A stretch of DNA of 64,000 nucleotides from Rickettsiales bacterium (GCA_044356525.1 JBIKVZ010000001.1:416562-480561); one strand, 5' to 3'. Shown: positions 18,496 to 42,683, numbered from the stretch's first letter. The notes: a model not told the origin generated them from the letters alone. Numbers and translations are program-made.

Positions 18496-18574
18496 AATTA
18501 TCTAAGTCAATGGCTTACCTAATAACAAAAAACTCTTCTTTTATAGCTAGATTGAACTTCCTGGTTTTTTGGTT

Positions 18575-20453: not shown

Positions 20454-20633
20454 ATGATTCTGCGCGATCAGACGGGCAAGCGCATTGGCACCATCGAAGA
20501 AAGTTATGGTGGCAGAAAAACAGTGCGCGATAATCATTACCGAACGCAATATCGCATTGAGCAAGGTTTTGGAGACAGGCTTATTATTCGAGACGCTACA
20601 GGCAAAAGAACTGGCAGTGTTGAATCCAGATAG
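20454..20633 (+). CDS. small repeat-containing ORF (59 aa), possibly a remnant of a longer gene
   Basis: Three repeats of about 20 aa, (S/G)(Y/F)G(D/G)R-x3-RD-x2-GKR-x-G. The same frame is open from 20316 without a start codon. Below the track's length cut-off. Confidence 0.3.
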   Translation: MILRDQTGKRIGTIEESYGGRKTVRDNHYRTQYRIEQGFGDRLIIRDATGKRTGSVESR

Positions 20634-20695
20634 TCACCTGTCAGAATCGGTCGCATGTTCCGATTCTGGATTTTTCACACGCCCGTTATTGTCGG

Positions 20696-22012: not shown

Positions 22013-22174
22013 AGCGATTGCCTGTCAAAGGGTCAAATTTATGCACCGGTTTATTCGCCTAGAAATGATCTTGAAAGATTTCAATCTGTCCTTTGACACA
22101 AACTCAATCATCTTGACCAACACCGCACTTTTGATTATTGCTCAGAAATCAAACAGCAATAATTGAGGTGTGGT

Positions 22175-22690
22175 ATGCCGCGAGGTGGAAGACGTAAAGG
22201 ATCTGGAAGACCCGCAGGAACCGGTCAGTTTGGAGCTCCGACAAAGTCCATTCGAGTGCCTGTTGGCATGGTCGATAATGTTTTGGAGTATGTGCGGCTG
22301 AAGGGCTTTGCCCTCCCGCTTTATTCCTGCGCGGTATCGGCAGGGTTTCCTTCACCGGCTGATGATCACATGGACGGCAAGCTGGACTTGAACGACCACC
22401 TGATTAAGCACCCCGCCGCCACCTTCTTCGTGAAGGCTACTGGTGAATCAATGATCGGCGCGGGAATTCATGATGGCGATATTCTCATCGTGGATCGCAG
22501 TGTTGAAGCAAAGAACGGTAAAGTGGTAATTGCCGCCATTGATGGTCAGCTCACAGTGAAACGGCTTTCCACCCGACGCGGCAAATCTTGGCTGATGCCT
22601 GAGAACGAAAAATACCAGCCGATTGAGATTAAAGAAGGCAACGATGTTGTCATTTGGGGCGTAGTAACAAACGTCATCCACGCACTGTAG
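22175..22690 (+). CDS. umuD: UmuD-like S24 peptidase (Pol V accessory subunit) with basic N-terminal extension
   Basis: AGFPSPADD, GESM (Ser nucleophile) and VIAAIDGQLTVKRL (Lys). ATG 22175 follows RBS GAGGTG. The N-terminus MPRGGRRKGSGRPAGTG is extra. Confidence 0.85.
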   Translation: MPRGGRRKGSGRPAGTGQFGAPTKSIRVPVGMVDNVLEYVRLKGFALPLYSCAVSAGFPSPADDHMDGKLDLNDHLIKHPAATFFVKATGESMIGAGIHDGDILIVDRSVEAKNGKVVIAAIDGQLTVKRLSTRRGKSWLMPENEKYQPIEIKEGNDVVIWGVVTNVIHAL

Positions 22691-22699
22691 GGGTATCTC

Positions 22700-23968
22700 A
22701 TGCCCATCTTTGCCTTGGTTGATTGCAACAATTTCTACGCCTCCTGCGAGCGCGTTTTCAATCCGAGTCTGGAAGGCAAGCCAATCGTCGTTTTGTCGAA
22801 TAACGATGGCTGCATCATTGCCAGGTCGAATGAAGCCAAAAAGCTCGGCATTCCGATGGGAGGCGCATTTTACTCGCAGAAGGATGTTTGCAGAAAACAC
22901 GGCGTGCATGTGTTCTCGTCAAACTACCAGCTGTATGGCGATATGTCGCAGCGTGTGATGGAAACATTGCGGCACTTTGTGCCGGATATGGAGGTGTATT
23001 CGATAGATGAAGCCTTCCTGTGTTTAGATGGTTTCAGCAGCCGCGATTTGAATGACTACGCGCTAGAAATCAGAAGTGCTGTAAAGCAGTGGACTGGGGT
23101 TCCTGTATCGATCGGCATCGCGCCAACCAAAACACTTGCAAAGGTTGCCAACCACATTGCCAAGAAGCGCACCACTTCAGGTGTTTACAGCCTGCTTACG
23201 CGTGATGAGCAAAATGCCGCCCTTGCCAATCTTGATGTCGAAGAAATATGGGGTATCAGCTCACGCTGGGGCGCACAGCTTAAACAGCGCGGCATTCATA
23301 CTGCCCTACAGCTAAGAGAAGCCAATCCTAAGCTGATACGTCAGCACTTCAGCGTTGTGGGTGAGCGTATCGTAGAAGAACTCCGTGGCAACTCCTGCAT
23401 GCCGCTAGAGATGCACGTTGCGGCTCGAAAGAACATTCTATCGTCCAAGTCTTTTGGGAAGCTGGTTGCTGATCTGCCATCGATTGATGAGGCCTTGGCA
23501 AACTACGCTGCCCGCGCGTGCCTAAAGCTGCGGAAGCAAAAGAGCCGCGCCCAAGGGATTTACGTTTTCGTCCGAACGAATCCTTTTCGAGTTCAGGAGC
23601 CACAGTATCGGAATGGCATGTCCATAGGGTTTTCGGTTCCCACCAGCGACACACGTGCAATCGTTAAAGCCGCAAGCCAGTGTTTGTATCGAATCTATCG
23701 CCCAGGTTTCCGCTACCACAAAACGGGAATTATGCTGCTCGATCTAATTCCAGAATCACACGTGCAGCAAAACCTGTTTTTGAACGTCGATCATAGTCAC
23801 AGCGACAAGCTCATGGTGACGCTGGATAGTCTCAATGAGCGCATGGGTAAAAATACCGTCTTTCTGGCATCGCAGGGCATAAAGCGTGGTTGGCAGATGC
23901 GCTGCGATAATCGATCCCCGCGATATACGACAAATTGGGACGAGTTGGCATTTGCGCGCTGCATTTAG
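22700..23968 (+). CDS. umuC: Y-family DNA polymerase V catalytic subunit
   Basis: MPIFALVDCNNFYASCERVFNP, VVLSNNDGCIIARS, SIDEAFL. Confidence 0.9.
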   Translation: MPIFALVDCNNFYASCERVFNPSLEGKPIVVLSNNDGCIIARSNEAKKLGIPMGGAFYSQKDVCRKHGVHVFSSNYQLYGDMSQRVMETLRHFVPDMEVYSIDEAFLCLDGFSSRDLNDYALEIRSAVKQWTGVPVSIGIAPTKTLAKVANHIAKKRTTSGVYSLLTRDEQNAALANLDVEEIWGISSRWGAQLKQRGIHTALQLREANPKLIRQHFSVVGERIVEELRGNSCMPLEMHVAARKNILSSKSFGKLVADLPSIDEALANYAARACLKLRKQKSRAQGIYVFVRTNPFRVQEPQYRNGMSIGFSVPTSDTRAIVKAASQCLYRIYRPGFRYHKTGIMLLDLIPESHVQQNLFLNVDHSHSDKLMVTLDSLNERMGKNTVFLASQGIKRGWQMRCDNRSPRYTTNWDELAFARCI

Positions 23969-24022
23969 GCGTATGGTTTAGGGGTAACGTACAGTATCAT
24001 CGGCATAAAGATTGTAGGATTT

Positions 24023-24589
24023 ATGAAGGCACTTAATCAAAGAATTACAGGATGGTGTGCAGCAGTAATGGCGCTGATACTGCCCCTATCGCCGTGCCTT
24101 GCAAAAGACGAAAGAAAAATTCCTGTTCCAGTCGAGGTATGGAGAGATGTTTCTACCAAAGAGCTGACGATTGCTGGCATTGGTAAAGCCAAAGACGGTG
24201 ACACCCTCTCCATAGACGGCGTTTTTGATGTGCGCCTGATTGGAATTGATGCGCTGGAAAGAAAGCAGACCTGCTCAATGAATGATGAAGCGTGGAAATG
24301 TGGCGAAGAAGCAAAAGCACTACTTGCAGAACTGGTCGATAATAAGCGGGTCGAATGTGAGAACCGAAAGAAAGAGAAATATGGCCGTTTTCTGTCAGTT
24401 TGTAGAGTTGGCGATATCGTTTTGAATGATGAAATGGTCAGACGCGGCTACGCAGTAGCCTACATGGTTCCTGATTATGTGGATGCCGAAGAAGAAGCAA
24501 AGCTCTCACAAGTGGGCGCATGGGCTGGTGATTTTTTAATTCCTGATGAATGGCGAAAGCGCAAACGCCAGAAAGTACGAAGTTTATGA
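24023..24589 (+). CDS. secreted thermonuclease (SNase-like) family nuclease
   Basis: Signal peptide. DGDTLSIDG..VRLIGIDALE, YGRFLSVCRV and NDEMVRRGYAVAY match the staphylococcal-nuclease fold pattern. Confidence 0.8.
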   Translation: MKALNQRITGWCAAVMALILPLSPCLAKDERKIPVPVEVWRDVSTKELTIAGIGKAKDGDTLSIDGVFDVRLIGIDALERKQTCSMNDEAWKCGEEAKALLAELVDNKRVECENRKKEKYGRFLSVCRVGDIVLNDEMVRRGYAVAYMVPDYVDAEEEAKLSQVGAWAGDFLIPDEWRKRKRQKVRSL

Positions 24590-24909
24590 GCATATCGGTA
24601 AATCAGAAAGAGTTGATTAAGGCACTCCAGCCACCAAAAATGAAGCGCGGGCAGATTCCAAAAATCACTGAGATTCGCGGTTCATTTTCAAGTGACTTGA
24701 TAATCACTGCGCCCGCCCACGAATCCCGCTTACAGGGAAAAGGTACATTCCCTTATCATGTGACCGCCAATGCGCGCATAATACATGAAATGGTGAAGAA
24801 GCTACCGAAGTCAGAAAATGTTGAGTTAGATACACTAGAAAATCAGATTCTATTTCGTATCGGTAGCTTTGTTTTGAAGTTTAATGCGGTTGAAATTCGC
24901 AGCCTGTAA
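24586..24909 (+). CDS. hypothetical protein (107 aa)
   Basis: ATGA overlap with the nuclease stop suggests translational coupling. No recognisable motif. Confidence 0.45.
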   Translation: MSISVNQKELIKALQPPKMKRGQIPKITEIRGSFSSDLIITAPAHESRLQGKGTFPYHVTANARIIHEMVKKLPKSENVELDTLENQILFRIGSFVLKFNAVEIRSL

Positions 24910-25621
24910 AACGAAAAAAAGCCCCGAACCTTTCGGCTCGGGGCGATTGCTAGGGAGGGATAATAACTTCTGATCTGGCTGGATTGTTGGGCATCAACGC
25001 GTCATTGTTGAGCTTGGTGTTAAGCGTGACAATGCCGATGCAAAAGACGTGGTAGCGGATGAAATGGAAGCTGCGTGAGAGAGACCGAAGCCGGATGGCC
25101 GAATGAGGCTGTCCGGCTTTTTTTAGTGATTCGGTTATTCCAAAGAGGCTGCGCAAAATCCTGCAAGTGCGAGCAATTACAATGCCTTGCTGTGATTGTG
25201 TCAGAATTGGAAAATTCCTACCAATCCCACTTTTGAGGGTGTTTTTGACCAAAAGTAGGGTCATTTAGGGGTAAAATCATGTCCCAGTGATGTACCAACA
25301 GGTACCGAAATTCGGAAATAAGGCAAAAAAAGGTGGGCGGAAAGCAATCACGCTTCCCGCCCGAGCTGCACTGGGAGGATAACCGGCCAATAAAAAACCC
25401 AGCGTGGGGATGCCAGCTGGGTGGGGTACGTAATTTTCCGATTATGCTAAGATCATAGCTAACGGCGTGACGCTATGCAAGTGTTTTTATTGTAGTTCAA
25501 TATGTTAGCAAGTTTGCAAACGGTGACAATCCTGCAATTCACGTCATCAACGGGCATAACTATCTGGGTTTCAAAGCATATTATCCTTGCATTTTGAACA
25601 TTTAATCATCAGAATACTAGA

Positions 25622-26782
25622 ATGACATTGCCCCGCCACACACTCACTCAGCAGATTGAACATGCGCTTTCGCGCAATCCCGTGGTGTCGCTTATTGGCC
25701 CTCGTCAGTGTGGCAAGACAACACTCGCACGCGCCATTGGAAAATCTCAGGACGCAACCTTCTTTGATCTTGAACACCCTGTTGATGCCGAGCGGCTAAA
25801 AAATCCGCTCACCGCGCTCGAACATTTGCGAGGATTAGTGGTTATCGACGAAGCGCAGTTGGAGCCAGCCTTATTTCCCGTGCTGCGCGTGCTGGCTGAC
25901 CGCACACCACTTCCTGCACGGTTCTTACTTCTGGGCAGTGCTTCTCCTGATTTGGCGAGCAACATTTCAGAATCACTGGCTGGCAGGATTCACTTCGTGA
26001 ATATGTCTGGGTTCAACCTGCATGAAGTGGGTGCTCCGCATTGGCGAGAGCTTTGGCATCGCGGCGGTTTTCCTCGCTCATATCTGGCAGAATCAGATGC
26101 AGATAGCTTCAAATGGCGTGAGGATTTTATCGCGACATTTTTGGAGCGCGACCTGCGCCGCCTTGGAGTCATGGTGGCACCAGAATCGCTACGTCGGCTA
26201 TGGATGATGATCGCGCATTATCATGGGCAAGTGGCAAAGCTCTCTGATATTGGGCGGTCGCTGGGAGAAAACCACACCACGATCCGCCGTCATCTGGATA
26301 TTCTGGAAGGTGCATTGGTGCTCCGCCAGCTTCAGCCTTGGCATGAGAATGTTGGCAAACGGCAAGTCAAATCGCCGAAAGTATATGTGCGCGATACGGG
26401 TATTCTGCACACGCTACTTGGTTTGGGAAATGCCGCCACGATTGAATCACACCCAAAACTTGGTGCAAGCTGGGAAGGGTTCATCACCGAGCGAATCATA
26501 GAGATGTTCGGTGATCGTAATTGTATGTTCTGGGCAACCCAAGCGGGAGCGGAGCTTGACCTGCTGGTATTGCATCAGGGCAAACGCTACGGCTTTGAAA
26601 TTAAATACGCCGATGCGCCAAAAACCACCAAGTCCATGCGCGAGGCAATTAAAACGCTTGAACTCACCAAGCTGTTTATTGCGTATCCAGGCAGCAAAAG
26701 TTATGTGGTGGATGAACATATTGAAGCAGTTGGCATTGTGGATTTAGAAGCAAAGCTGAAAAACCTCATTGCATCATCATAA
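25622..26782 (+). CDS. AAA-family ATPase with DUF4143-type C-terminal domain
   Basis: Walker A GPRQCGKTTLA, Walker B VVIDEAQ. The C-terminal EIKYADAPK segment is typical of the AAA_14/DUF4143 family. Confidence 0.8.
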   Translation: MTLPRHTLTQQIEHALSRNPVVSLIGPRQCGKTTLARAIGKSQDATFFDLEHPVDAERLKNPLTALEHLRGLVVIDEAQLEPALFPVLRVLADRTPLPARFLLLGSASPDLASNISESLAGRIHFVNMSGFNLHEVGAPHWRELWHRGGFPRSYLAESDADSFKWREDFIATFLERDLRRLGVMVAPESLRRLWMMIAHYHGQVAKLSDIGRSLGENHTTIRRHLDILEGALVLRQLQPWHENVGKRQVKSPKVYVRDTGILHTLLGLGNAATIESHPKLGASWEGFITERIIEMFGDRNCMFWATQAGAELDLLVLHQGKRYGFEIKYADAPKTTKSMREAIKTLELTKLFIAYPGSKSYVVDEHIEAVGIVDLEAKLKNLIASS

Positions 26783-27359
26783 ATCTGTCTTCAGCGTTGG
26801 CGCTGAGACCTGTTACGCTTACGTTGCTGCTCTTTGTACATGGCTTCGTAGATGCTGGATAGATCGTCCAGTACGAGGCTGATGAGCTTCTTGCCTGAGC
26901 GCCTTGGCCACTGCGTCCATTTTTCCAGCGCGTCCACCGCGATGCCCTCTATGCACACCTGATAGGCATCCAATCAATGTCCAGCGGAACAGCCAAGATT
27001 GTTGATATTCGTGATGCCAAAAAGAATGAGAAATGAAACATCACCGAAACATCACCGGAACATCACGAGGGATAGAAATCGATAGTATTTGATAGCAAGC
27101 AGTAGTGATAGGGCAAGCCAAAGAATTTACGAAAAAGCCTTTATATGTAGTCACTTGGATGGTTCTATAGGTGTCTGTAGGAATGTGTGAAAAAATCATT
27201 TTGTTCGTCTTAAAAGGACACAAAATCCTTTTCGTCTAAGGTGGATTGTGTTTGTAAATGAAGGCGTTATAAAAGGAGGGCAAGGCGGATTTTGTTCCGA
27301 AACATCACCGGAACATCACCGAAAAAAGAGTGGTGTAACAGTTTGATTTTAATAGATAA

Positions 27360-27658
27360 GCTCGCGTGGCGGAATTGGTAGACGCAACGGACTTAAGACA
27401 AAAGGATTGAGTGCTCTGGTGGAAATGCCAGAAGTAGAACTGCTCAAATTCGGGGAAGCCTGTAACATGGTAATCCCGAGCCAAGCCTGAGAGAAATTTC
27501 AGGAAGGTGTAGAGACTAGACGGGCAGCACCTAAAACCGAAAGGTCATGGTGAAGGGATAGTCCAGACCCCAAACGGGTGGCGGCGAAAGCCGTGGTAGG
27601 TAAGAAAATCCGTCGGGAGTTAAATCCTGTACCGGTTCGACTCCGGTCGCGAGCACCA
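27360..27658 (+). tRNA. tRNA-Leu(UAA) interrupted by a group I intron (copy 2)
   Basis: Exon 1 is 27360-27394, identical to copy 1. Exon 2 is 27605-27658, with a different variable arm (CGGGAGTTAAATCCTGT) and a T loop TTCGACT. CCA is encoded. Confidence 0.85.
27395..27604 (+). ncRNA. group I intron, 210 nt (diverged paralog of 18223-18443)
   Basis: Same conserved core (TCAAATTCGGGGAA, CCGAGCCAAGCC, GAAGGTGTAGAGACTAGACGGGCAGCACCTAAAACC). Indels and substitutions are confined to peripheral stem-loops. Confidence 0.85.
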
Positions 27659-27714
27659 ACTTGTTTTGAAATTTAAGTGTTGATTTTCTAAATAAGAGAT
27701 GTATAAACACCTCT

Positions 27715-27826
27715 GTCTTAAGGGAGTAACCTGCTCTCCAGTTTGGAGAATGGACGCGTCAACATACTTGCCACAGTGCTGGCATGGCGTGTCCCACCAG
27801 TAAATCGGTGCGGTGAGACTTACGAC
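27715..27826 (+). ncRNA. yybP-ykoY-like manganese riboswitch (tentative)
   Basis: AAGGGAGTAAC..., ...CGTCAACATAC... and ...GGTGAGACTTAC resemble the conserved GGGGAGUAG / UUGACAUAC / AGAGACC blocks. The closing helix is GTCTTAAG/CTTACGAC. It lies directly upstream of a UPF0016 gene, a classic regulon member. Confidence 0.55.
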
Positions 27827-27903
27827 GAAGTGGTTCGCTCAGGGTTGGGCGGAAACACTTTGTCGTATGGTCATCAACCATCGCCCAACCCACTGGTGTT
27901 TAT

Positions 27904-28464
27904 GTGCAAGTACTTCTTTCATCCGCTTCCCTCGTTGCTGTTGCCGAAATGGGCGATAAAACACAGCTGCTTGCGCTCATGCTTGCAGCGCATTATGGCC
28001 GCGCCATACCCATTGTTCTGGGCATTACGCTCGCCACCACACTCAATCACCTTGCTTCCGCTTGGCTTGGTCAGACCATTGGCGTGAATTTCAACTCCCC
28101 CCAGTTTTCACTGGCAGTTGGTGTTCTCTTCATCGGTATCGGGCTGTGGTTGCTTAAGCCAGACACGCAAGATTCCATCAGCAATAAGTTCCTGCGTTTT
28201 AGCCCATTTGTAGCTAGTTTCATCGCCTTTTTTCTGGCAGAGATTGGTGACAAAACACAGCTCGCCACCATTGCGCTTGCCAGCGAATACCAAGCCCTGC
28301 TGTGGGTAACGCTTGGCACCACGATAGGTATGCTCATCACCAATATTCCTGCCGTTTTTCTCGGCGAGGCATTCATCGCCAAAATACCCATGAAGCTGGT
28401 TCGCAATCTCGCATCGCTTGCCTTCATCGGGTTTGGCTTTTATCAACTCATTCAATCATTTTAA
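27904..28464 (+). CDS. UPF0016 (GDT1/TMEM165/MneA) family cation (Mn2+/Ca2+) transporter
   Basis: Two E-x-GDKTQ motifs (VAEMGDKTQLLA, LAEIGDKTQLAT) in a 6-TM protein. GTG start. Confidence 0.85.
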   Translation: MQVLLSSASLVAVAEMGDKTQLLALMLAAHYGRAIPIVLGITLATTLNHLASAWLGQTIGVNFNSPQFSLAVGVLFIGIGLWLLKPDTQDSISNKFLRFSPFVASFIAFFLAEIGDKTQLATIALASEYQALLWVTLGTTIGMLITNIPAVFLGEAFIAKIPMKLVRNLASLAFIGFGFYQLIQSF

Positions 28465-28478
28465 GTAAGGAGACTTCC

Positions 28479-29465
28479 GTGAATTATTCGTTACATCAAA
28501 CCATTCAATCTGAGGCACCTTGCAAGCTGTGCGGTGGCCATGAACTGCAAGTGATCGGTACGCAGGGAAGGCATTTCCAGAAACTCACCACCACCATCTG
28601 TACGGGTTGCGGTCTGATTCATAGCTACCCCATCCCAACCAAAGAGGAACTAGACGAATATTACAGCAAGCAATATCGCAGCGATTACAAGGGTGCATAC
28701 ACGCCCCAGCGCAAGCATATCCTTCGTTATTCGCGTGGGGCGATGCACCGCATTAAGCAGCTGCTTCAGTTTGCAAGCAAAGGCCAGAAGCTGCTGGATG
28801 TAGGCAGTGGTAGTGGTGAGTTTGTGTATATCGCATCGCTGTCTGGCTTTGATGTGCATGGGCTCGAGCCTCACGAAGGCTATTCAGAATATACCCGCAA
28901 AACCTTTGGCGTCCCCATCATCACCGCGCCGCTTGAAAAGGCAGATATTGCGCCTGAAAGCTATGACGTCATTACACTCAACCATGTGCTCGAGCACCTT
29001 CATTACCCGCTAACTTCACTTGGTTATTTAAACCGCTGGCTCAAAATGGGCGGGCTGCTCGCAGTCGATGTGCCCAATATAGCGTCAACACATCATTCCC
29101 CCATCAATCGCTTCCACTACGCACATTTTTATAATTTCAACCATGATACGCTCAAAGCTATGCTTGAGAAATCAGGTTTCACAGTGGAAGCACATCCTGA
29201 CTTTAGTGGCACCACGCTATTCGCCAGAAAGACAGGCGCTCCTGATCCTGAACGTATCATCGCAATGCCAGAGAATTATCAGCGCTTGCTGCATCTGATG
29301 TCGAAAGAAGTGGCAACCGAAAACTACCGTAAGAAAAAACCACTCAAGCGGTTCTTAAGCAAATGCCGACGTTATCCACTGGAGTTCATCGAAGCGATGC
29401 TATTTTGGAATCCCCGTCGCATTGTCAAAAGAGAATTCAAAAAGGCAAATGGTAGTTTTATGTAG
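28479..29465 (+). CDS. class I SAM-dependent methyltransferase with N-terminal CxxC..CxxC zinc ribbon
   Basis: Motif I LLDVGSGSGEF, then ITLNHVLEHL. GTG 28479 follows RBS TAAGGAGA. The track start 28302 would overlap the transporter gene. Confidence 0.75.
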   Translation: MNYSLHQTIQSEAPCKLCGGHELQVIGTQGRHFQKLTTTICTGCGLIHSYPIPTKEELDEYYSKQYRSDYKGAYTPQRKHILRYSRGAMHRIKQLLQFASKGQKLLDVGSGSGEFVYIASLSGFDVHGLEPHEGYSEYTRKTFGVPIITAPLEKADIAPESYDVITLNHVLEHLHYPLTSLGYLNRWLKMGGLLAVDVPNIASTHHSPINRFHYAHFYNFNHDTLKAMLEKSGFTVEAHPDFSGTTLFARKTGAPDPERIIAMPENYQRLLHLMSKEVATENYRKKKPLKRFLSKCRRYPLEFIEAMLFWNPRRIVKREFKKANGSFM

Positions 29466-29496
29466 TGGTTTGGATAAGGTAAGTGGATGTATGAGC

Positions 29497-29700
29497 CACT
29501 TTTCTCAGGGACACTGGCGGGACACTAGAGGGTAAATAATGAGCACAAATGGCAATAGGTGGCAATCAAGCGAACCTTCTGTAACCCGCTGTGGCGTTGT
29601 TGTGTATCGTTATGGATTGTTGTGGCGTGTTTTATACAAAGGACTTAAAATCCCTCGAAGGTTAAACTTCGTGCCGGTTCGATTCCGGCCGCGAGCACCA
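29497..29700 (+). repeat. Repeat A copy 1: conserved ~145-bp arm plus 3' half of tRNA-Leu(UAA)
   Basis: Tandem GGGACACT x2, then GGGTAAATAATGAGCACAAATGGCAATAGGTGG..., and from 29641 GGACTTAAAATCCCTCGAAGGTTAAACTTCGTGCCGGTTCGATTCCGGCCGCGAGCACCA. Confidence 0.85.
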
Positions 29701-29923
29701 CGTCCTTCGTTAACCAAAAATTAAACATCTTCTGCTATATTCTACTTATAAAACAGGTGGGTGTGGATGATTTTTGATTGGTCGCGCTCGGGGGTGGGTG
29801 AAACGAGGTTGTTGTAGACCACTAAGAGGCCACATGGAAAGAAAAGATGCAATACAGTCCGTAAGGAAAGCCATCTTGCAGGCATAGAGGGAAAATTCTC
29901 TCGCCATTTCGGCCATTGATCTG

Positions 29924-31036
29924 GTGGATAAAGCGCTGTGGGAGGAATTCCGCATGAAGGCCCAGTTCGGGTATGAGCAAACTTTTCGTATCGTTCCTGA
30001 AGAGCCTGGCCGTGGGAAGAAAGGGCCGCTGGACGCTAGGAATATCGAAAGGGAATTTCTGGGGCTGGAGGCAAGTGGAAGGCCGCTTCCGAAGCAAGGA
30101 AAAGAATTCCGCCCCATCATTGTGAAATTCCACTACGACAACGAACCGCAGAAGTTTGAAGCAGTAACAAACGTCGGCTCGGCCAAGCAGGTGGCGCGGT
30201 GGGTGGTGATGTTCAGAGAGCTCGCCACTGCGCTGGCACCGGAATATCCTTCCACAAAAACAGCCTCTTTCCAAGGCTCCCATGTGTTGGACCTTACTTC
30301 GCCGTTTGGTGGGCCTATGCGGAAATATACGAATACTAACGGCATCCATGTGAACTTCAGCATCCTCTTCAATGGTGAAAACGGATTTGAGAACCGCGCC
30401 TTACAGATGCATACAATCCATGGCGTGAAGACCTTGTCAGAAGAAACAACGCTTATGGTAGCGCTCTATCCCAATGACTACGAGCGGTATAAAATCTCGG
30501 GCACACACAAGCCAAACTATATCGGGGTAACGGAAGGGAAGGATGATAAGTCCCTTAGGGTGGTAGACGAAGGAAGGTTGAGGCCGCACAAGCGCCGCGT
30601 GGAGGACAGAGTTCCGAGCTCCAGCGCTAATCCGTATTACGCCAGTCTCAGAGTGCTGGTGGGGATGTATCTGGGCCTGGGGGAAAACGTAGCGCTGGAA
30701 CAGGACGGCGAGAAACCGAAGCTAGAAGTTGCTCCTGCTGAATACGGCTATCTTGAAAAGGCCGCCAAATCCGAGGGAGGATTGCCAGCATATCTGAAAA
30801 GTTTCTTTGTTGCCCCTAAAGAAGTGCCGGTAAAAGAAGAAGCCCCCCTCCATGTCATTCCAAAAGATATCGGGGCGGCGATAGAAGAATTCAGGGAAGG
30901 CAAAATACTACGCGAATCCCTTAATGAACTCAGCATGAAATACGGCGAGGGTAGTCCGGTTGGCGACCTTGTTCATGCTCAGGTGTTGCAACGCGCCAGA
31001 GATAATGCGCACGAAGGGCCTACCAAAAGCATGTAG
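29924..31036 (+). CDS. divergent glutamine synthetase-like (GS catalytic domain) protein
   Basis: NGIHVNFSILF (compare GS GxGxHxNFS) and RVEDRVPSSSANPYYASLRVLVGMYLGL (compare GS R-x-E-x-R-x-P-x3-NPYL). An in-frame ATG at 29834 is separated from the ORF by a TAG at 29885-29887. Confidence 0.55.
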   Translation: MDKALWEEFRMKAQFGYEQTFRIVPEEPGRGKKGPLDARNIEREFLGLEASGRPLPKQGKEFRPIIVKFHYDNEPQKFEAVTNVGSAKQVARWVVMFRELATALAPEYPSTKTASFQGSHVLDLTSPFGGPMRKYTNTNGIHVNFSILFNGENGFENRALQMHTIHGVKTLSEETTLMVALYPNDYERYKISGTHKPNYIGVTEGKDDKSLRVVDEGRLRPHKRRVEDRVPSSSANPYYASLRVLVGMYLGLGENVALEQDGEKPKLEVAPAEYGYLEKAAKSEGGLPAYLKSFFVAPKEVPVKEEAPLHVIPKDIGAAIEEFREGKILRESLNELSMKYGEGSPVGDLVHAQVLQRARDNAHEGPTKSM

Positions 31037-31056
31037 AGACTGTAAGCGAAAAAGCC

Positions 31057-31259
31057 CCATTTTCTAGGGACACTACAGGGACACTAGAGGGTAAATAATG
31101 AGGACAAAGGGCAATAGGTGGTAATCAAGCGAGCCTTCTGTAATCCGCCGTGGCTTTGTTAAGTAGCGTTATAGATTGTTGTGGCGTGTTTTATGCAGAG
31201 GACTTAAAATCCCTCGAAGGTTAAACTTCGTGCCGGTTCGATTCCGGCCGCGAGCACCA
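31057..31259 (+). repeat. Repeat A copy 2 (arm plus 3' half of tRNA-Leu)
   Basis: Aligns with copy 1 along its full length with scattered substitutions. The tRNA 3' half (31200-31259) is identical to copy 1. Confidence 0.85.
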
Positions 31260-31385
31260 TAAGCCCAATTCGATTCTCTTGGTTTCAATTAAGCACAGAC
31301 GCAAAAAGAAAGCGGCCCTTTATAGAACGACAGATAAAATGGGATTTCTCGGTTGGCCTATTATTAATAGGTAGTGATAATTAAA

Positions 31386-31976
31386 TTACCGGTCTCTACT
31401 CGGTTTTTTTGGCGTATCATCTGGGCCATCTGAGCCGTATTTTCCTCTTAGAGCATCTTCCCTATCGCGGTAATTACGGTGGACATTGTCAACCATACCA
31501 TCAAAACGTTTGAGCGCCTCACGATCAACATAATCGGGGAGCGACTTATCTTTATGATTGCTATATTCATATACATATCCATGTGCCTCTGGTGCATTTT
31601 GCATCCAACTATTATCGGGGTTAAAATCACGAGCTCTTGGAAAATTTAGTTGTTTCCTGGAAAGTCCATCATTATTGCCCAAATTATCCAAGTAATTATC
31701 AATTTGCTTTCTTTCGACCGCTGTTTCTACGCTGTGTTTATAAACATCTTTTATCATCTCGCCAGCCTTACGCAGGAGCGTAAGGTTCTCAATGTGTTCT
31801 TCAACACTAGCGGGTGTTGCGAATTGGATTTTCACGGTTCCTCGACCAGGAGATTCTACAAGTGCTGTTCCCATGTCAAATCCAGCGTGGCCCAGTACTT
31901 TGTTCCAGTGCTCAACGCGTATAACAGAGTCTGCTCTATCGCGCTCTTCCCACATTTTATTGGCCCAACCGTTCAT
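31386..31976 (-). CDS. hypothetical protein (196 aa)
   Basis: Track ORF, third in a tightly packed three-gene minus-strand set. No motif recognised. Confidence 0.5.
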   Translation of the reverse strand: MNGWANKMWEERDRADSVIRVEHWNKVLGHAGFDMGTALVESPGRGTVKIQFATPASVEEHIENLTLLRKAGEMIKDVYKHSVETAVERKQIDNYLDNLGNNDGLSRKQLNFPRARDFNPDNSWMQNAPEAHGYVYEYSNHKDKSLPDYVDREALKRFDGMVDNVHRNYRDREDALRGKYGSDGPDDTPKKPSRDR

Positions 31977-31985
31977 TCTTCTCGC

Positions 31986-32306
31986 CTATGCCGAGGATGC
32001 ATTACCAGAATTAGAAGGTTTATAATCGCGTTCAGAAGCAACAGAAACACTCAGCGGCGATTTTTTGAAATCGAAAGTGGAATCAGGATACACATCGGCC
32101 AGTTTTGGTCTGGAAAAAAAGAGAGCATCTGATGTTCTCCTTTTTTCTTCTTCAGGAACAGCGGCTTCAAAATCTAGCAGCCTTCTGAACTCGCCGATAT
32201 AGGCCCGCTCCAGAATCCTGTTTCTGTTCTTAGACAAAGATTCACCGGGCTGAATATACTCAGCAAGAATGTTATTAGCTTCTGAAGAAGAGTCTGATTT
32301 TGCCAT
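31986..32306 (-). CDS. hypothetical protein (106 aa)
   Basis: Track ORF, 9-bp gap to the next gene. No motif recognised. Confidence 0.45.
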   Translation of the reverse strand: MAKSDSSSEANNILAEYIQPGESLSKNRNRILERAYIGEFRRLLDFEAAVPEEEKRRTSDALFFSRPKLADVYPDSTFDFKKSPLSVSVASERDYKPSNSGNASSA

Positions 32307-32360
32307 GATAATTCAAAAGTAAGTTTCTCTAGGTATGGAGCTTGGTTGTGGCTTTGTTAA

Positions 32361-33119
32361 TTAGTAGCGCTCAGTCACACGCTGTGTTGATGCAGTAACA
32401 GCCAGCGCTTTGCCCGCCTCGACCTCTTTTGAACGTTCTTCAATGAATTTTTGTAAGGGGGTTTCATTGCCCGCCCAGTTGTCTATCAAAGGTTCTGCTT
32501 TGGTAGCCTCAACGGCCCGTTCTAGGCCTTTTATCATAGTGGCACTCCATTCATCACCTTTCTTAACAAGTGGTGTTACGGTAGAATCACCATCCAGTAT
32601 GCCTCGCGCAAGATTTGCAGCAGCGGATACTGCAGGCTTAAGTTTAGTGGCGAGCTCTCTTGCCGCATCCACGTCTGTTTTACTTAACTGAACCACAAGC
32701 ATGACCATGTTCTGTGCAATGTTTGCCGCTGCAGCGACACCCTCTGCACGGGTTGGATTTTCAGCGGCCATATTAATACCGCTATTACCCCAGTTTGCTT
32801 TTAGCCAATAGATCGGTTCTTCCTCGGGCGCCCCTGTTTTCGCTAGTCTTTGCAGATCCAATACAGCTGCTTCTGCTTTTTGCGTCACCTGCTCGGAAAG
32901 TGATTTATCTACTTCTTCGGGCGAAATCGGAGCACCCGTAAGCTGATTAATTGCCTTTGGATCTAGCGCAAGCAGCACCTTGCCAGCATAGCCCTTCTGG
33001 CCCGATGTCTTCATTTCTTCAAGCCTATTATCTAAACGTAACTGGTCTTGCTCGGAAAGGATGCCCGATTCTACCATTATATGTCCAAGTGGCTTAACAG
33101 TCTCCAGACTCATCTTCAT
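32361..33119 (-). CDS. hypothetical protein (252 aa), Ala-rich helical
   Basis: Track ORF with RBS AGGAGG before the ATG. No motif recognised. Confidence 0.5.
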   Translation of the reverse strand: MKMSLETVKPLGHIMVESGILSEQDQLRLDNRLEEMKTSGQKGYAGKVLLALDPKAINQLTGAPISPEEVDKSLSEQVTQKAEAAVLDLQRLAKTGAPEEEPIYWLKANWGNSGINMAAENPTRAEGVAAAANIAQNMVMLVVQLSKTDVDAARELATKLKPAVSAAANLARGILDGDSTVTPLVKKGDEWSATMIKGLERAVEATKAEPLIDNWAGNETPLQKFIEERSKEVEAGKALAVTASTQRVTERY

Positions 33120-33378
33120 AGATTGCCTCCTAATTCAGGCTATACCCCGCCTTATTATTCTATGCGCAAGTAGTTAAAGAATGGTTAAAAATTAGCGCCT
33201 ATCGCATCTATTGTTATTTTTGAGGGCAATAGTGGGGGCGGCAGGTATGCCGCTGGCACGATAAGAAGATTAACCTACGCCAAGCGATGCAATCATCGGC
33301 CTGAGAATGATGGGCGCACCTTGTTCAATAGAAGGGGACTGCTTGAAGAACCCTAAGAGCTAATTGTCATTTATTTAG

Positions 33379-33529
33379 TTTTATTCTCAGGGACACTACA
33401 GGGACACTAGAGGGTAAATAATGAGCACAAATGGCAATAGGTGGTAATCAAGCGAGCCTTCTGTAACCCGCTGTGGCTTTGTTCTGTAGCGTTATGGATT
33501 GTTGTGGCGTGTTTTATGCAGAGGACTTA
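33379..33529 (+). repeat. Repeat A copy 3 (arm only; ends inside the core at GGACTTA)
   Basis: Same GGGACACT x2 and downstream arm. Homology stops at 33529 and no tRNA 3' half follows. Confidence 0.8.
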
Positions 33530-33762
33530 TGCGGTAGTCCAGCGCCACCCTAAAACTATCAGGTGAGAAATCAGGTATGGGGGCATCTCTTTAATAAAAG
33601 ATTTGAATTATTATTATTTAGTACCCTGGGCGCAGAGATGCAAAATATTTTTACCCACAATCTGATTTTAGTTAATAAATATTCTGTCTAGTTGAGGGGT
33701 GGTATATGAAGTCTTTGAATGACGAACTTCAACTTCATCTGAAGTAAGTTCAGATTCTTGTT

Positions 33763-34293
33763 GTGGGCCCTAGCGCAGAGACAAATAAACTAATTAAAGA
33801 AATTTTTTTAGTACTTGGCTTTAAGCATATTTACACCGCTACTGATCCGGCGGAGGCCGTAAGTATGCTGAGAGAGGTTCGCATCAGCATTATCATCACC
33901 GACCATACTCTCAAAATCTCCCCTACTTCTGATAGTATTTCTATTGATTCTTCTGGCTTACAGATTAAAGGTGTTGAATTGGTTAGGAGCATCCGCTTAT
34001 CGAAAAATTCTCCAAGTCCCTATGTAGCTATCTTGATGGTGGCTTCCAGCAACCTCTCTGGCGAAGAAGCTACCACAATGCGAGATAGTGGTGTGAATGG
34101 CCTGCTGCTACGCCCGCTGGAAGCAGAACAGCTCTGCAAAAAGGTGCGTGACATCATCGAAAGTCCCCGAATCTTTATTACGTCCAAAGAGTACGCTGGG
34201 CCGTGTCGAAGAATCCATAAAACTAAGTGGACGGCAGCAAAAGAGCGGCGGAAAAAACAAATCCAGGTGATTTCTTCCAGAGCCAAAGCATAA
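33763..34293 (+). CDS. receiver (CheY-like) domain protein, degenerate; probably disrupted at its 5' end
   Basis: FKHIYTATDPAEAVSMLREVRISIIITDHTL and ILMVASS fit a REC fold. The beta-1 strand VQILVV lies upstream of the track start and after an in-frame TAA (33745-33747). That stop follows ATG 33706, which has RBS GAGGGGTGG. Confidence 0.55.
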   Translation: MGPSAETNKLIKEIFLVLGFKHIYTATDPAEAVSMLREVRISIIITDHTLKISPTSDSISIDSSGLQIKGVELVRSIRLSKNSPSPYVAILMVASSNLSGEEATTMRDSGVNGLLLRPLEAEQLCKKVRDIIESPRIFITSKEYAGPCRRIHKTKWTAAKERRKKQIQVISSRAKA

Positions 34294-34315
34294 ATTTTTA
34301 CACAAGGAGAGCTTT

Positions 34316-34846
34316 ATGGCGAATGATAACGATATTAAATCTATTGCCGAACCCTATGCTTTGGCGGCGGATTTGACGCTAAAAGAGCTGCTGGGCCCTA
34401 AAGAGCGCCTGGATAAAATCTTTTCAGAAGAAAATATTTCGCGCAGCCAGGCGCTTATTGACGAAGCAAAAAGCAGCTTCTTCGAATCCGCAAGGCCACT
34501 GGTGACAAGCATTTGTAATGCCGCCAAAGTAAATGTGGATATGAAAATTGGTCAGGCACAGCTCAAAACCATCTCTCAAGAGGCGCAGTCGCTTCGGCAG
34601 CAAGCTGACACGCTCAGTTTTCCTTTTGTCGTAAGTGTTTGCTCAAATATTGAGCTTGTGGCGCGGACTGCTGGGAAGTTGGATTTTGATTATACAAAGC
34701 TCATTCGCGAACTTACAAACCTACTCACACTAGCCTTTCAGATGAAAATTATTGATGAAGGTGGTGGAGTGGGTCATAGCGTTATCGAAGCCCTCAAAGT
34801 TCTATCAAATACAATCAAAGGTATAGCAGTTGGCGCCAGCGCCTAA
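34316..34846 (+). CDS. hypothetical helical protein (possibly HPt-like four-helix bundle, no conserved His seen)
   Basis: 176-aa track ORF with RBS AAGGAGAG, directly downstream of the receiver gene. Confidence 0.45.
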   Translation: MANDNDIKSIAEPYALAADLTLKELLGPKERLDKIFSEENISRSQALIDEAKSSFFESARPLVTSICNAAKVNVDMKIGQAQLKTISQEAQSLRQQADTLSFPFVVSVCSNIELVARTAGKLDFDYTKLIRELTNLLTLAFQMKIIDEGGGVGHSVIEALKVLSNTIKGIAVGASA

Positions 34847-35042
34847 GCGGGGCATCCATCGGAATACGCTAGAAACCATAGTCCAGGGGTTTTCCCTTCT
34901 ACCGCAGCTCTTCTGTGATAACAAAGAGCTCGTATTCAATTTTAGGGCCGAGATACGGCCTTTTTTAAAAGCCTCTATGTCCCAATTGGGATTAAAATTC
35001 CTATCCTTATAGGAATTTATCATCGTGGCTAGTGCCTGGAAA

Positions 35043-35062
35043 GTTGGCTGAGACTAGGACTC
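35043..35062. repeat. distal att repeat of the tRNA-Gln island
   Basis: GTTGGCTGAGACTAGGACTC versus GTTGGCTGGGAGACTAGGACTCGAACC at 44075-44101 (3' end of tRNA-Gln). Confidence 0.7.
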
Positions 35063-35168
35063 ACATTTAAACATTAAGTATCTGTTATATAATAATAGTT
35101 AGTAATACACTTTCCTGATGTGCCCCCAAATATGCCCCCAGCCCACTCAGTTGGGGACTTGTCAGGCC

Positions 35169-37799
35169 TTAGTGAGCGTCTGCAAGAAGCTCGTCAATCC
35201 CAGCTTGAAACTCTGGCATCCTTTGGGCTTCATTGTAGAAGGGCAGTCCCCACACCACAAACTTCTTCCCCTTCCACAATTGCTCAATAACGGAGTTTGC
35301 CCGAAGCGTTTTGAGGAAGCTTTCCTTCCATGCATCATTGGCTAGCAGATGGCCACCCTTTGGCTCAATAAAAACCTGATAATGCATGGTGTCCGTTTTT
35401 TGTTTACCAACTAAGAATAATACAAAGTCTGGCTCAAGTGCCTTGCCGTCATCAAAGTTATATAACTTGAAGTGTCTCTCATTTCGTACAAGGTAAACTT
35501 CGGCAAACTTAGCCTTCAACACATCGATGTGCTTATCTATGTATTTAATAAGAAACTTTTCTTCAGACGTGCCATAACAATCATTGAATACAAACCAATT
35601 TCTTGTGTTGGCACTCAAATCTAAATGGAAAGCTATGTTGGCGCTATCATTCATGGATTGGCCAAACTGCTTGTCTTCTGTTTCGTCTTCAGCAAAATTC
35701 AACGTCTTATCAAAAAACACAGAGTTGACCATTTTAGGCTTAAACTCTGAGGTGCCTTTGTACTCTATCTTATCACCAGCAATTGCAATTGCTATTTCTG
35801 CCAGAACTTTGGTAGAGGCATACAGCTTATCATCTGCACTAAGGTTATCAAGTTGTTCGGGCAGAGCTTGAATTTCCACCTTTACTTTACCAAGATAATT
35901 ATCAGCCATTAAAAATTCTTTAGCGGTCTTTAGGTGGGGCAGATGATTTTTTAGGTTAGAAAATTCAAAAAATTCAAATTGGCGCATAGCTCTATGCAGC
36001 ACATTCAAGCCAAAACCATTAAGAGAAAAATATTTCTCTTTGCGCTGTATAGCCGGACTTGTTTCCCTGTTTTCAGCAAAAGCTGTCTCGGATTTAGCAA
36101 AGCCAGTATGCAATTGTACCTTATAAAGCTTCTGTATCAGCGTATTCGGCAAGCCCATAACATCGGCACGGTCATATTTTTTACGGTCATTTAAGAATAT
36201 ATAGCCTGCCTTAAAGAGATGCGTAGCCTTAAAGCTCTCTTTTAACTTCACGGTACGTTGTTTGGTCTCTTTGGCTATAATCCCCGTTTCGCGGAGAGCA
36301 GTGTAAAGCTCCTGAATGTACTTGGGGTTATGTGCGCTGTGATAATATAATTCTTCACAAATTCGCATTTCATTTTCTAGGTCTTTGTCAAACTTACGTT
36401 TGTCAGTCGGCTGGTCAGCCAAAAGGCGGAAGGGACAATACCGCGCACCACGGCCAATTAGCTGCGCCTCACTCATGGTGGTCTTGCCTATGCGATTGCC
36501 TGCATTGCTATCGCGCTTATCATAAAGTCGCACAATATCGAAAAGATTTAGAACATCCCACCCTTCGTTAAGCTTATCTACTGCAAAAACAGCTCGGTAT
36601 TCATTAGATTCTAGTGAGTTAACAGCAATCTGCTTCTGCTCACTCTCTTCTTTGCTATTTACTTCAATTAACTTTTCGGACGAAAAATCGCTCTTCAATT
36701 CTGTAATTAGGTTTTCGGGCGTAATTTTATTAGCATCAAAATAGTCGAATGCCGCTTTAAGAACGGCATCGCCTACTTTGTCTCTCAGAGTCTGGAGTTT
36801 GGGAACACTTAGGGTAGCTATACCATCATTAAACGCTTCAAAAAATTCCTTACTTTCTTTGATGGTCTTCGATTTAAAGAGTAAAACGGGCTTGATGGTC
36901 AATTTATTCTTTTCAAAAATCTTCCGCCGATATTGCGAAAGCAGGATTGCCTGTAGTGCTCGCTCAAGGGGCGGCAAATCAACCTGTAAAACTTTTACCT
37001 CTTTTGAATAACCATCTATACGAAAATCCTTGAGGGGATAATCGAAAATTAGCTTTGGCTTATATTTTTTAGCAAGGCTTTCTTCTGAAAAATCAATGGT
37101 AGCCGTAAATTCTAGTAGTGTGTTTTCTGGATGGGCTTCAAATATACGCTTAACCGTTCCTTCCCAGCTATCTATCTCCAAAAGGTCACCGGTAGTAGCA
37201 CCACGTCGGGTATCAACGTTTATGTGGTGAGCTTCATCTGAAATAAGGACAATTTTTTTATTCTCAAAATCATCATAGGTTAAAGCCCCTTCGCGAGGGT
37301 TATTGAGAGCCATGTGCAGCCCCTGAATAGTTGAGAAAACTATGTTCAAATCATCGGGGTTCCCAGCTTGAAAATTATCCACCTCGCGAATAGCAAACTG
37401 CTTTTCGCCGATTGCTAGTCGCTCTGAGAAAAGGTACTTGGCAGAAAGCGGGTTTAGGAAGTTATCACGGGTCTTTTGGATAATATTACTGCTGTTCACA
37501 AAAAATAAGAAGTTACGGTAGCCTTGCTGATAAAGATGCAGCATTAGCCCCGCCATTATTAATGTTTTTCCACTACCAGTAGCCATGTGGAATAAAAGCT
37601 GGTGGTTTTGGCGTGGTTTGCCCTCAAACGACTCATTCCAGTACTTCAAGAAAAGCTGAAAGGCCTTGTGCTGATAATGGCGTAAAGCAAATTTGGGGCT
37701 AAGATTAGCCACCATGTGAGGGGGTACTTCGGTCTTATCGATAAACTTCTTGCCAAACTCTTCAATTAGACCTTGGTGGAGCGTCTTTATCTCGGTCAT
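35169..37799 (-). CDS. res: Type III restriction enzyme, Res subunit (SF2 helicase-nuclease)
   Basis: 876 aa. Motif I HMATGSGKT, motif II LISDEAHH, and helicase C region QLIGRGAR. Immediately downstream of mod. Confidence 0.88.
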   Translation of the reverse strand: MTEIKTLHQGLIEEFGKKFIDKTEVPPHMVANLSPKFALRHYQHKAFQLFLKYWNESFEGKPRQNHQLLFHMATGSGKTLIMAGLMLHLYQQGYRNFLFFVNSSNIIQKTRDNFLNPLSAKYLFSERLAIGEKQFAIREVDNFQAGNPDDLNIVFSTIQGLHMALNNPREGALTYDDFENKKIVLISDEAHHINVDTRRGATTGDLLEIDSWEGTVKRIFEAHPENTLLEFTATIDFSEESLAKKYKPKLIFDYPLKDFRIDGYSKEVKVLQVDLPPLERALQAILLSQYRRKIFEKNKLTIKPVLLFKSKTIKESKEFFEAFNDGIATLSVPKLQTLRDKVGDAVLKAAFDYFDANKITPENLITELKSDFSSEKLIEVNSKEESEQKQIAVNSLESNEYRAVFAVDKLNEGWDVLNLFDIVRLYDKRDSNAGNRIGKTTMSEAQLIGRGARYCPFRLLADQPTDKRKFDKDLENEMRICEELYYHSAHNPKYIQELYTALRETGIIAKETKQRTVKLKESFKATHLFKAGYIFLNDRKKYDRADVMGLPNTLIQKLYKVQLHTGFAKSETAFAENRETSPAIQRKEKYFSLNGFGLNVLHRAMRQFEFFEFSNLKNHLPHLKTAKEFLMADNYLGKVKVEIQALPEQLDNLSADDKLYASTKVLAEIAIAIAGDKIEYKGTSEFKPKMVNSVFFDKTLNFAEDETEDKQFGQSMNDSANIAFHLDLSANTRNWFVFNDCYGTSEEKFLIKYIDKHIDVLKAKFAEVYLVRNERHFKLYNFDDGKALEPDFVLFLVGKQKTDTMHYQVFIEPKGGHLLANDAWKESFLKTLRANSVIEQLWKGKKFVVWGLPFYNEAQRMPEFQAGIDELLADAH

Positions 37800-37812
37800 T
37801 TTACTTCACCAC

Positions 37813-39720: not shown

Positions 39721-39754
39721 TAATTACCCCGCAAACATAGTCAGCTAAGCCGTA

Positions 39755-41328: not shown

Positions 41329-41342
41329 TCTACCATCCCGCC

Positions 41343-42677: not shown

Positions 42678-42683
42678 GCTGCT

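Follow-up and report, generated by a model that had tools for sequence, protein, structure and literature searches.

Repeat-closed modules at a split tRNA-Leu(UAA) gene of a Rickettsiales bacterium: a probable tandem array of non-autonomous integrative units

We analysed a 64,000-nt stretch of a Rickettsiales bacterium genome (GCA_044356525.1 JBIKVZ010000001.1:416562-480561; hereafter the window) in which three small gene modules between positions 27,659 and 33,529 are each closed by a copy of the same repeat, Repeat A. The structure is best read as one of a known kind, a tandem tRNA-anchored array of non-autonomous modules, with an arm family that is new to the literature searched. Elements of a family that uses tRNA anticodon loops very probably have Repeat A as the P arm of their attachment site (attP), and the array very probably records successive integrations that now stand as non-autonomous modules resembling cis-mobilisable elements (CIMEs).

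A repeat search of the window found Repeat A in three direct copies (29494-29700, 31053-31259 and 33376-33529; Table 1) and no further one. The copies are 88-95% identical in pairwise comparison (copy 2 to copy 1, 90% over 207 nt; copy 3 to copy 2, 95% over 141 nt). For copy 3, the search gave 33376-33582; homology stops at 33529. The motif GGGACACT occurs six times exactly in the window, where 0.84 occurrences are expected by chance, and all six form three tandem pairs. Copies 1 and 2 share the same 60 nt, GGACTTAAAATCC...CGCGAGCACCA (in full GGACTTAAAATCCCTCGAAGGTTAAACTTCGTGCCGGTTCGATTCCGGCCGCGAGCACCA), which equal an intron-less tRNA-Leu(UAA) from the anticodon stem-loop through CCA. Copy 3 diverges directly past GGACTTA, within the anticodon loop, and is joined there to unrelated DNA (TGCGGTAGTCC...) in an aberrant junction. 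A first-pass annotation of this DNA had already described three repeats in the same orientation, two of them ending in the tRNA-Leu 3' part and the third inside the core, and modules of about 2.0, 1.6 and 2.3 kb; all of this is borne out, with measured unit lengths of 2042, 1559 and 2270 bp. Its 4-nt spacer between the paired motifs is corrected to 3 nt, as the pair members start 11 bp apart.

The other part of the tRNA gene lies at the true left junction (17976-18016), where the 5' half of a native gene runs, beyond 18016, into non-tRNA DNA (GTGTTGGC...), and the gene is not regenerated. The protein encoded left of the locus (16439-17887) has an 82%-identical orthologue in a relative assembly, L008. 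This assembly is colinear with the window up to 18016 and then carries an intact intron-less tRNA-Leu(UAA) gene (L008 11536-11624). The 3' part of the L008 gene is 96.8% identical to window 31200-31262, including 3 nt past CCA, and 95.3% identical to 29637-29700. When 17970-18016 was joined in silico to 31213-31265, ARAGORN recognized a canonical tRNA-Leu(taa). Because the L008 gene is intact and the window halves reassemble to a tRNA-Leu, we place at least 13.2 kb (18017-31199), on this comparison, inside the anticodon loop of a formerly normal tRNA-Leu gene. The recombination core is the 13-nt overlap GGACTTAAAATCC in the anticodon stem-loop. The target tRNA is thus split, with fragments of the same tRNA in direct orientation at the far end, the arrangement that marks a tDNA island. 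GC content is 40-51% across 18-44 kb and ~53-55% in the flanking core. The anchor had at first been sought in the tRNA gene beside module 1 (27361-27658), but that gene bears an intron and is not the integration target; the true left junction is 9.6 kb to its left. ARAGORN also calls a tRNA-Ala(AGC) at 17026-17098, inside the open reading frame (ORF) 16439-17887; the call has no Rfam support and is probably a false positive.

Relatives of the arm were sought by exact-pattern scans for GGGACACT-n3-GGGACACT-AGAGGGYAA, which yielded only seven loci (four in genomes, three in metagenomes and one viral, the sets overlapping). A match at L005 (5900-8000), on a contig labelled Nitrospirales, is a ~185-bp satellite of GGGACAC(C/T) 11-mers and was discarded as spurious. 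The arm measures 133 nt from the GGGACACT pair to the anticodon stem, and the distance from the second GGGACACT to the stem is 113-114 nt in all seven arms measured. Between loci, the arms are 63-71% identical; shuffled sequences average 58% and reach 65% at most (alignment A4). Since homology of the arms always begins at the GGGACACT pair, the pair is taken as the outer arm edge. The arm adjoins 3' fragments of tRNA-Met(CAU) in L011 and L025, a tRNA-Asn(GUU) fragment in L007 (identical to L004 and L012), and a tRNA-Trp-like fragment on the minus strand in L003. In L006/L013, a Met-type core is truncated inside the loop (GACTC, then CTTTACCGG) as in window copy 3, and neither copy 3 nor L013 has a tRNA part. 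A blastn search of Repeat A against plasmids matched the tRNA part only. With the motif as a short query, phages gave no meaningful match, and plasmids led to an element of Legionella adelaidensis with tRNA-Met(CAU) as its target.

Three similar copies within 4 kb could also be a dispersed repeat resembling a miniature inverted-repeat transposable element (MITE) or a repetitive extragenic palindromic (REP) sequence, or a local segmental duplication by homologous recombination, in either case without site-specific integration. We consider this very improbable, as the copies have no terminal inverted repeats, all three sit at core junctions with none elsewhere in the window, the cargo between them is unrelated, and the split in the native gene falls exactly at the core. 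The first-pass annotation had itself pointed to MITE-like dispersal as the outcome that would speak against its view; elsewhere, all homologues found stop at the anticodon loop of a tRNA, and their spacing is the same. The end of Repeat A in a tRNA T-arm and CCA, together with an A/T-rich TAAATAAT after the GGGACACT pair that resembles a -10 box by eye, would suit a small structured RNA whose 3' end is tRNA-like. That the repeat encodes such an RNA is nevertheless extremely improbable: shuffled sequences reach an equally good minimum free energy (z = +0.54), its consensus fold is weak, with the T-arm alone supported and no covarying helix outside it, Rfam gives no match to it, and copy 3 and L013 have no tRNA part at all.

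The preferred reading, an attP arm, gains from the structure of the relatives. L011 shows an intact tRNA-Met, then a 2.8-kb integrase-less unit, then the arm. The unit holds two genes, for a Fic-motif protein (HPFxxGNGR, assigned by motif and without a Pfam scan) and a secreted protein. Perfect GGGACACT pairs stand in both arms, the P' pair at ~+100 from the core, and a degenerate copy of the downstream arm lies behind the displaced tRNA fragment. Small integrase-less units with intact arms (0.8-2.8 kb) recur in several genomes, and it is mostly such tiny modules, with toxin, Fic, toxin-antitoxin (TA) or transport cargo, that carry the arm.

A full element with its integrase, for which the first-pass annotation had proposed a search, was found in L. 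adelaidensis (L025, NZ_LR134418.1). It is complete, occupies 13.2 kb (9844-23058) and lies at tRNA-Met(CAU) downstream of rpoD. A GGGACACT/GGGGCACT pair stands ~50 nt downstream of the tRNA, followed by two cargo genes; an inverted site pair stands ~310 nt upstream of the integrase gene. The integrase (WP_058461129.1) is a 355-aa protein of the tyrosine type (Pfam Phage_integrase, E 2e-36), and after it come a toprim/DnaB-like primase-helicase, small regulators and then the P arm. At the right end, the tRNA stretch that runs from the anticodon loop to CCA recurs without a mismatch. By its layout, L025 is an integrative element with standard attL and attR. At the left junctions of both L011 and L025, the target tRNA is intact (regenerated). 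The similarity of the L025 integrase to the two integrases of the window is no more than generic, and its relatives are distant (viral contigs, ≤31% identity; plasmids, ≤35%); the GGGACACT motif was absent from the viral loci of these relatives. A further tandem pair of other sequence, TTGCGTGAC x2, lies ~50 nt beyond the right junction of L025, and L006 likewise has an extra pair of other sequence at an equivalent position.

That the GGGACACT pairs behave like arm-type sites is supported by their position at the arm edge, the fixed spacing of 113-114 nt and their recurrence in the other arm of relatives. The recombination arm of the first-pass annotation therefore stands in part: the conserved arm ending in a tRNA-Leu 3' part and the arm-type character of GGGACACT hold up, and a cassette-specific site does not. 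Its cassette array is not retained as an integron-like system either, as neither an integrase nor an attI adjoins the array, no hairpin signal was seen and the arm belongs to a 13.2-kb integrase-bearing element. An integron-like platform, in which an integrase encoded elsewhere inserts promoter-less cassettes with Repeat A as the cassette site, is accordingly improbable, even though the units are small, carry unrelated cargo at the same site in the same orientation and contain no recombinase. Beside the array there is no integrase, attI or promoter platform, and the nearest recombinases lie in a separate tRNA-Gln island. The site consists of a lambda/P4-style attP arm and a tRNA core and is present on an autonomous element. 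Repeat A shows no folding signal (z = +0.54 against shuffled sequences, folded as RNA and not with DNA parameters), module 3 consists of three opposite-strand genes, and module 1 has its own riboswitch.

On the reading as successive integrations, elements driven by a tyrosine integrase would recombine in the anticodon loop of tRNA genes, with the paired GGGACACT as putative arm-type integrase binding sites. Copies 1 and 2 would be attR-type junctions composed of P arm, core and displaced tRNA 3' part, left by site-specific integrations that followed one another, in a presumed order, into a single tRNA-Leu(UAA) gene. An incoming element with its own tRNA 3' part would regenerate the target and shift older units rightward. 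Integrase-less units should move only with a cognate integrase supplied in trans or from an adjacent element, and we regard the present units as non-autonomous because no recombinase domain or remnant occurs in 17900-35100. The aberrant junction of copy 3 may stem from secondary-site recombination or from an integrase-mediated deletion of the original 3' part. The last insert, at the left, apparently did not regenerate the tRNA and would instead supply intron-containing tRNA-Leu genes; its left junction suggests an attP without a tRNA 3' part, or a later deletion of that part.

Table 1 Positions of the features discussed; coordinates refer to the window unless another record is named
Feature	Position	Strand	Remarks
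5' half of native intron-less tRNA-Leu(UAA)	17976-18016	+	through anticodon stem-loop core GGACTTAAAATCC; attL of whole array
Element-side arm beside attL	18017-18188	+	two 11-bp-phased tandem pairs
TGAATTAT x2	18049-18069	+	tandem pair, 11-bp phase
GRAACATCACC x2	18118-18139	+	~+105 from attL core
Island-borne tRNA-Leu(UAA) gene I	18189-18495	+	221-nt group I intron after U34
Left insert cargo	18496-27023		LytTR, outer-membrane (OM) beta-barrel, SMC-like ATPase, UmuD/UmuC, SNase-like nuclease, AAA_14/DUF4143 ATPase; no recombinase
GRAACATCACC, second set	27035-27067 (x3); 27299-27320 (x2)	+	upstream of tRNA gene II
Island-borne tRNA-Leu(UAA) gene II	27361-27658	+	210-nt group I intron after U34
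Module 1 cargo	27659-29493	+	Mn riboswitch, GDT1/UPF0016 exporter, class I methyltransferase
Mn riboswitch RF00080	27709-27897	+	42.5 bits, gathering score 45, E 2e-10 (Rfam)
GDT1/UPF0016 exporter gene	27949-28464	+	
Class I methyltransferase gene	28479-29465	+	
Repeat A copy 1, attP P arm	29494-29640	+	GGGACACT at 29508-29515 and 29519-29526
Core and tRNA-Leu(UAA) part, anticodon stem to CCA, intron-less	29641-29700	+	attR-type junction; 95% to L008 tRNA
Module 2 cargo span	29701-31052	+	one gene only
Gln-synt_C-domain protein gene, module 2	29954-31036	+	
Repeat A copy 2, P arm	31053-31199	+	GGGACACT at 31067-31074 and 31078-31085
Core and tRNA-Leu(UAA) 3' part	31200-31259	+	closest to L008 tRNA, 96.8% over 63 nt
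Module 3 cargo span	31260-33375	-	three ORFs: 31386-31976, 31986-32306, 32361-33119
Repeat A copy 3, full P arm	33376-33529	+	GGGACACT at 33390-33397 and 33401-33408; ends GGACTTA
tRNA-Gln(CUG) island	35046-44098		9 kb, separate, outside array
19-nt direct repeat of tRNA-Gln 3' end	35046-35064	+	closes tRNA-Gln island
P4-like integrase of tRNA-Gln island	42684-43949	-	has arm-binding domain
L025 element locus	9767-23108		complete element at tRNA-Met(CAU), downstream of rpoD
L007 serine recombinase region	5813-7390 and 7350-7528		
L041, homologue of module 3 252-aa protein	10001-10726		
L042, homologue of module 3 252-aa protein	4100-4825		
L020 (pCTX-M3, NC_004464.2), intron-tRNA-Leu	~4998-5296		unannotated
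L021, intron-tRNA-Leu	~5001-5257		unannotated
L022, intron-tRNA-Leu			unannotated

Whether the units were small from the outset, as trans-mobilised mini-elements, is a question about their origin and not about the mechanism, and here decay is a serious alternative, to which we give a considerable chance, though one short of even. Full-size integrase-bearing islands would have integrated in tandem, and deletions would have left 1.6-2.3 kb of each, with the arm a relic and the units immobile. For such tandems, the standard route is that an integrated element decays to a CIME and accretion follows (PMC5704250). The sole complete relative is indeed a 13.2-kb element with an integrase, the window modules lack the P'-arm GGGACACT pairs, and the degenerate second P' copy in L011 shows that decay occurs. 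Against this, deletion would have to account for units that each begin exactly at the CCA end of the preceding tRNA part and for full-length arms kept at 88-95% identity with no detectable integrase fragment. The L011 module has perfect sites in both arms despite its two cargo genes only, and small integrase-less units recur in four unrelated genomes.

Several observations weigh against the reading of Repeat A as an attP arm left by successive integrations. No cognate integrase lies in the array (17900-35100). Downstream of their tRNA 3' parts, the window modules have no GGGACACT pairs, and may have ceased to be competent substrates. Unlike in L011 and L025, the tRNA is not regenerated at the left junction, and copy 3 has no intact overlap region; at least two junctions need extra events because these two are non-canonical. 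The exact-pattern searches brought up only about seven related loci. A strain comparison by exact-protein look-up gave nothing but identical sequence and contigs that break off at the repeats; all retrieved assemblies match the window, and none of them directly shows gain or loss of a single module.

The native gene appears to have been replaced by two intron-bearing ones. Rfam places matches to RF00028 at 18213-18417 (57.6 bits) and 27385-27580 (55.8 bits), in tRNA-Leu(UAA) genes I and II of the island. ARAGORN with default settings made no tRNA-Leu call in the window and missed both genes; after in silico removal of the introns, it called both as putative tRNA-Leu(taa). Genes I and II are 86% identical, and their differences preserve helices in the intron and the variable arm, which argues for two functional, separately acquired genes, as far as sequence can tell. 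In its 3' exon, gene II shares only ~80% identity with the tRNA part of Repeat A. Gene I follows the split native gene at a distance of 172 nt, in the same orientation, and transcription from the native promoter could plausibly read through into it. With the att core interrupted exactly by the intron, genes I and II as predicted cannot present an intact anticodon-loop target. Both lie within the insert 18017-29640, and the two island-borne genes probably replace the split native gene. We suggest tentatively, as an idea that is possible but doubtful, a non-restoring element that splits the host tRNA-Leu(UAA) and brings an intron-bearing replacement, in which the intron would hide the att core and block self-recombination or further insertion, and host decoding of UUA would become island-dependent. 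The outcome is in any case unusual, with a native tRNA that is split and apparently replaced by intron-bearing copies, the only ones that remain nearby.

Similar genes appear on plasmids. Homologues of the intron-bearing tRNA-Leu(UAA) occur on Bradyrhizobium conjugative plasmids at 80% identity (L019 6008-6288), and more than 1,200 Enterobacterales/Acinetobacter plasmid records carry such a gene beside aac(3)-IId/tmrB (L020). Spliced in silico, the L019 and L020 genes both give tRNA-Leu(taa). This suggests, from sequence matches, that intron-bearing tRNA-Leu(UAA) genes travel widely on mobile DNA. A literature search returned no paper tying bacterial group I tRNA introns to integration sites and none tying a group I intron to tmrB. 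A very common aminoglycoside-resistance region of clinical plasmids contains unannotated intron-bearing tRNA-Leu genes. On one Bradyrhizobium plasmid, the gene immediately follows a C-terminal integrase fragment (L019 5718-5984). In L020/L022, a TAGGTGCA x2 pair ~35 nt upstream of the intron-tRNA (4946-4965) is analogous to the GRAACATCACC sites of the window.

Each intron-tRNA gene is preceded at 40-50 nt by these GRAACATCACC sites, which repeat in tandem every 11 bp. The first pair has a position (~+105) like that of the P' GGGACACT pairs of L011 and L025, and by this likeness of position the tandem pairs on the attL side may serve as arm sites. The GRAACATCACC sites may be arm sites of an integrase of second specificity, accessory-factor sites or operators of the tRNA genes. 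Neither the GRAACATCACC pair nor the intron core gave any match in scans of viral sequences. As the real left junction is at 17976-18016, module 1 is probably the right end of a larger left insert rather than a separate 2-kb cassette. No Repeat A separates the 8.5-kb left cargo from the second unit of iterons and tRNA gene, so that an element-to-element junction may have disappeared there. We also considered a GRAACATCACC-type element carrying a tRNA 5' half, with tRNA gene II as a hybrid right junction; this clashes with the intron and with the co-adapted exons (ACGGA/TCCGT) of tRNA gene II.

The domain searches agree with the cargo first described for the modules, namely riboswitch, UPF0016 and methyltransferase genes, a glutamine synthetase-like gene, and three opposite-strand orphans; none of the three module 3 ORFs has a Pfam match. 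That the units have no recombinase, as likewise annotated, is borne out by a Pfam scan of 17976-35046, which found no recombinase domain, and by tblastn with five recombinase queries over 17900-35100, which gave nothing better than E = 2. Units 29701-31259 and 31260-33529 have core-containing junctions on both sides and no recombinase or transfer genes.

The Gln-synt_C gene of module 2 has homologues (47-51% identity) in ordinary chromosomal contexts (L015, L016). A second gene with a partial Gln-synt_C domain lies at 44674-46014, past the tRNA-Gln/tRNA-Met pair and outside the islands; the two proteins are 26% identical over 136 aa only. The 252-aa protein of module 3 (32361-33119, minus strand) has 41%-identical homologues just downstream of TrwC relaxase genes, which suggests, by gene neighbourhood, an origin in conjugative elements. 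At the loci examined, no homologue of a module 2 or module 3 gene has the arm beside it.

Outside the array, the tRNA-Gln island holds both integrases of the window and has ATGCCCCCA x2 in both arms (~35120-35145 and 43942-43966). In 17.9-35.3 kb, tandem pairs with 11- or 12-bp phase occur almost only at att-like positions, and tandem sites of this phasing ~50 nt past a tRNA end look like a general design, to judge from the loci compared. The island also encodes a type III restriction-modification system (35169-39720) and a second tyrosine recombinase with a helix-turn-helix (HTH)/zinc-ribbon partner (39755-41328).

Two loci of the arm family show further rearrangement. In L003 (2901-3485), the P arm and the minus-strand tRNA-Trp-like 3' fragment adjoin secE-nusG-rplKAJ, and the loop of the fragment reads CTTGAAA in place of CTCCAAA. 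An intact tRNA-Gly/tRNA-Trp pair on the opposite strand is flanked by the two copies of a perfect 17-nt inverted repeat, GGGACACTCATGGGACA (3065-3081 and 3467-3483), and the arrangement looks like an inversion between arm-site clusters. In L007, on a Rhodoferax/uncultivated virus genome (UViG) contig, a large serine recombinase gene has its 3' end directly against the tRNA-Asn fragment that closes the arm, and an AIPR abortive-infection gene comes next; it seems that this site also serves a second element, whose recombinase is of another kind.

Among known systems, attP sites of the lambda, HP1, P22 and P4 style have a core flanked by arms with repeated arm-type integrase sites, and crossover at tRNAs takes place in the anticodon loop. 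The window agrees with these in its core within a tRNA anticodon stem-loop, in the phased direct repeats ~115-135 nt upstream and ~100 nt downstream of the core, and in the integrase on the complete element (L025). It differs in that the same arm is combined with different tRNA cores, and integrase binding is here a prediction. One arm is reused with at least four tRNA cores, in this genome (alphaproteobacterium-like by its gene content), two Alphaproteobacteria metagenome-assembled genomes (MAGs), a Rhodoferax MAG and Legionella. Neither the arm family nor its GGGACACT motif was found in the literature searched, in which the motif itself was never a search subject. The family would be tractable for studying integrase retargeting and the hitch-hiking of non-autonomous modules.

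CIMEs are att-bounded units without integrase or transfer genes, such as the ICESt1-related elements of Streptococcus thermophilus, and tandem accretion is a published route to arrays of them (PMC5704250). Other examples of tDNA islands are of the Islander type (PMC4383910) or are the ssrA islands of Dehalococcoides (PMC3146451). As in tRNA/tmRNA island accretion, integration here is site-specific at a tRNA, a displaced 3' fragment marks each right end, newcomers integrate beside old elements, and att-bounded units may lack integrase and transfer genes. In contrast to such islands, the window crossover lies in the anticodon loop, whereas the integrative mobilisable element (IME) example in PMC5704250 (tRNA-Lys) is at the gene 3' end. 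Moreover, the units are very small here and in relatives (1.6-2.8 kb), the shared 133-nt arm also occurs at other tRNA identities, including the Rhodoferax MAG and Legionella, and the leftmost window junction leaves the tRNA split. The window units are like CIMEs in their att bounds and missing genes, and are candidates for cis-mobilisation. Island stacking at a tRNA gene is well known, and the reading as a new cassette system should be toned down.

Integron cassettes (attC) are likewise small, varied in cargo, free of a recombinase and in one orientation, with the site at one end. Unlike them, the window units have no IntI/attI platform, a site that is not a folded attC hairpin and a tRNA gene as the target; they bring regulatory elements of their own, and more than one gene may be present in a unit.

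For archaea, tRNA introns and split tRNA genes have been proposed to block viral integration (Randau and Soll 2008, discussed in PMC4090602). The window resembles this case in that the intron lies exactly where an integrase needs an uninterrupted anticodon loop. It differs in that the intron is of the bacterial self-splicing group I type and that the inserted DNA itself brings in the intron-bearing gene, adjoining the split gene; the protective role of the intron is here hypothetical. If the intron does protect the att core, it would be a bacterial group I counterpart of the archaeal idea that introns block integration.

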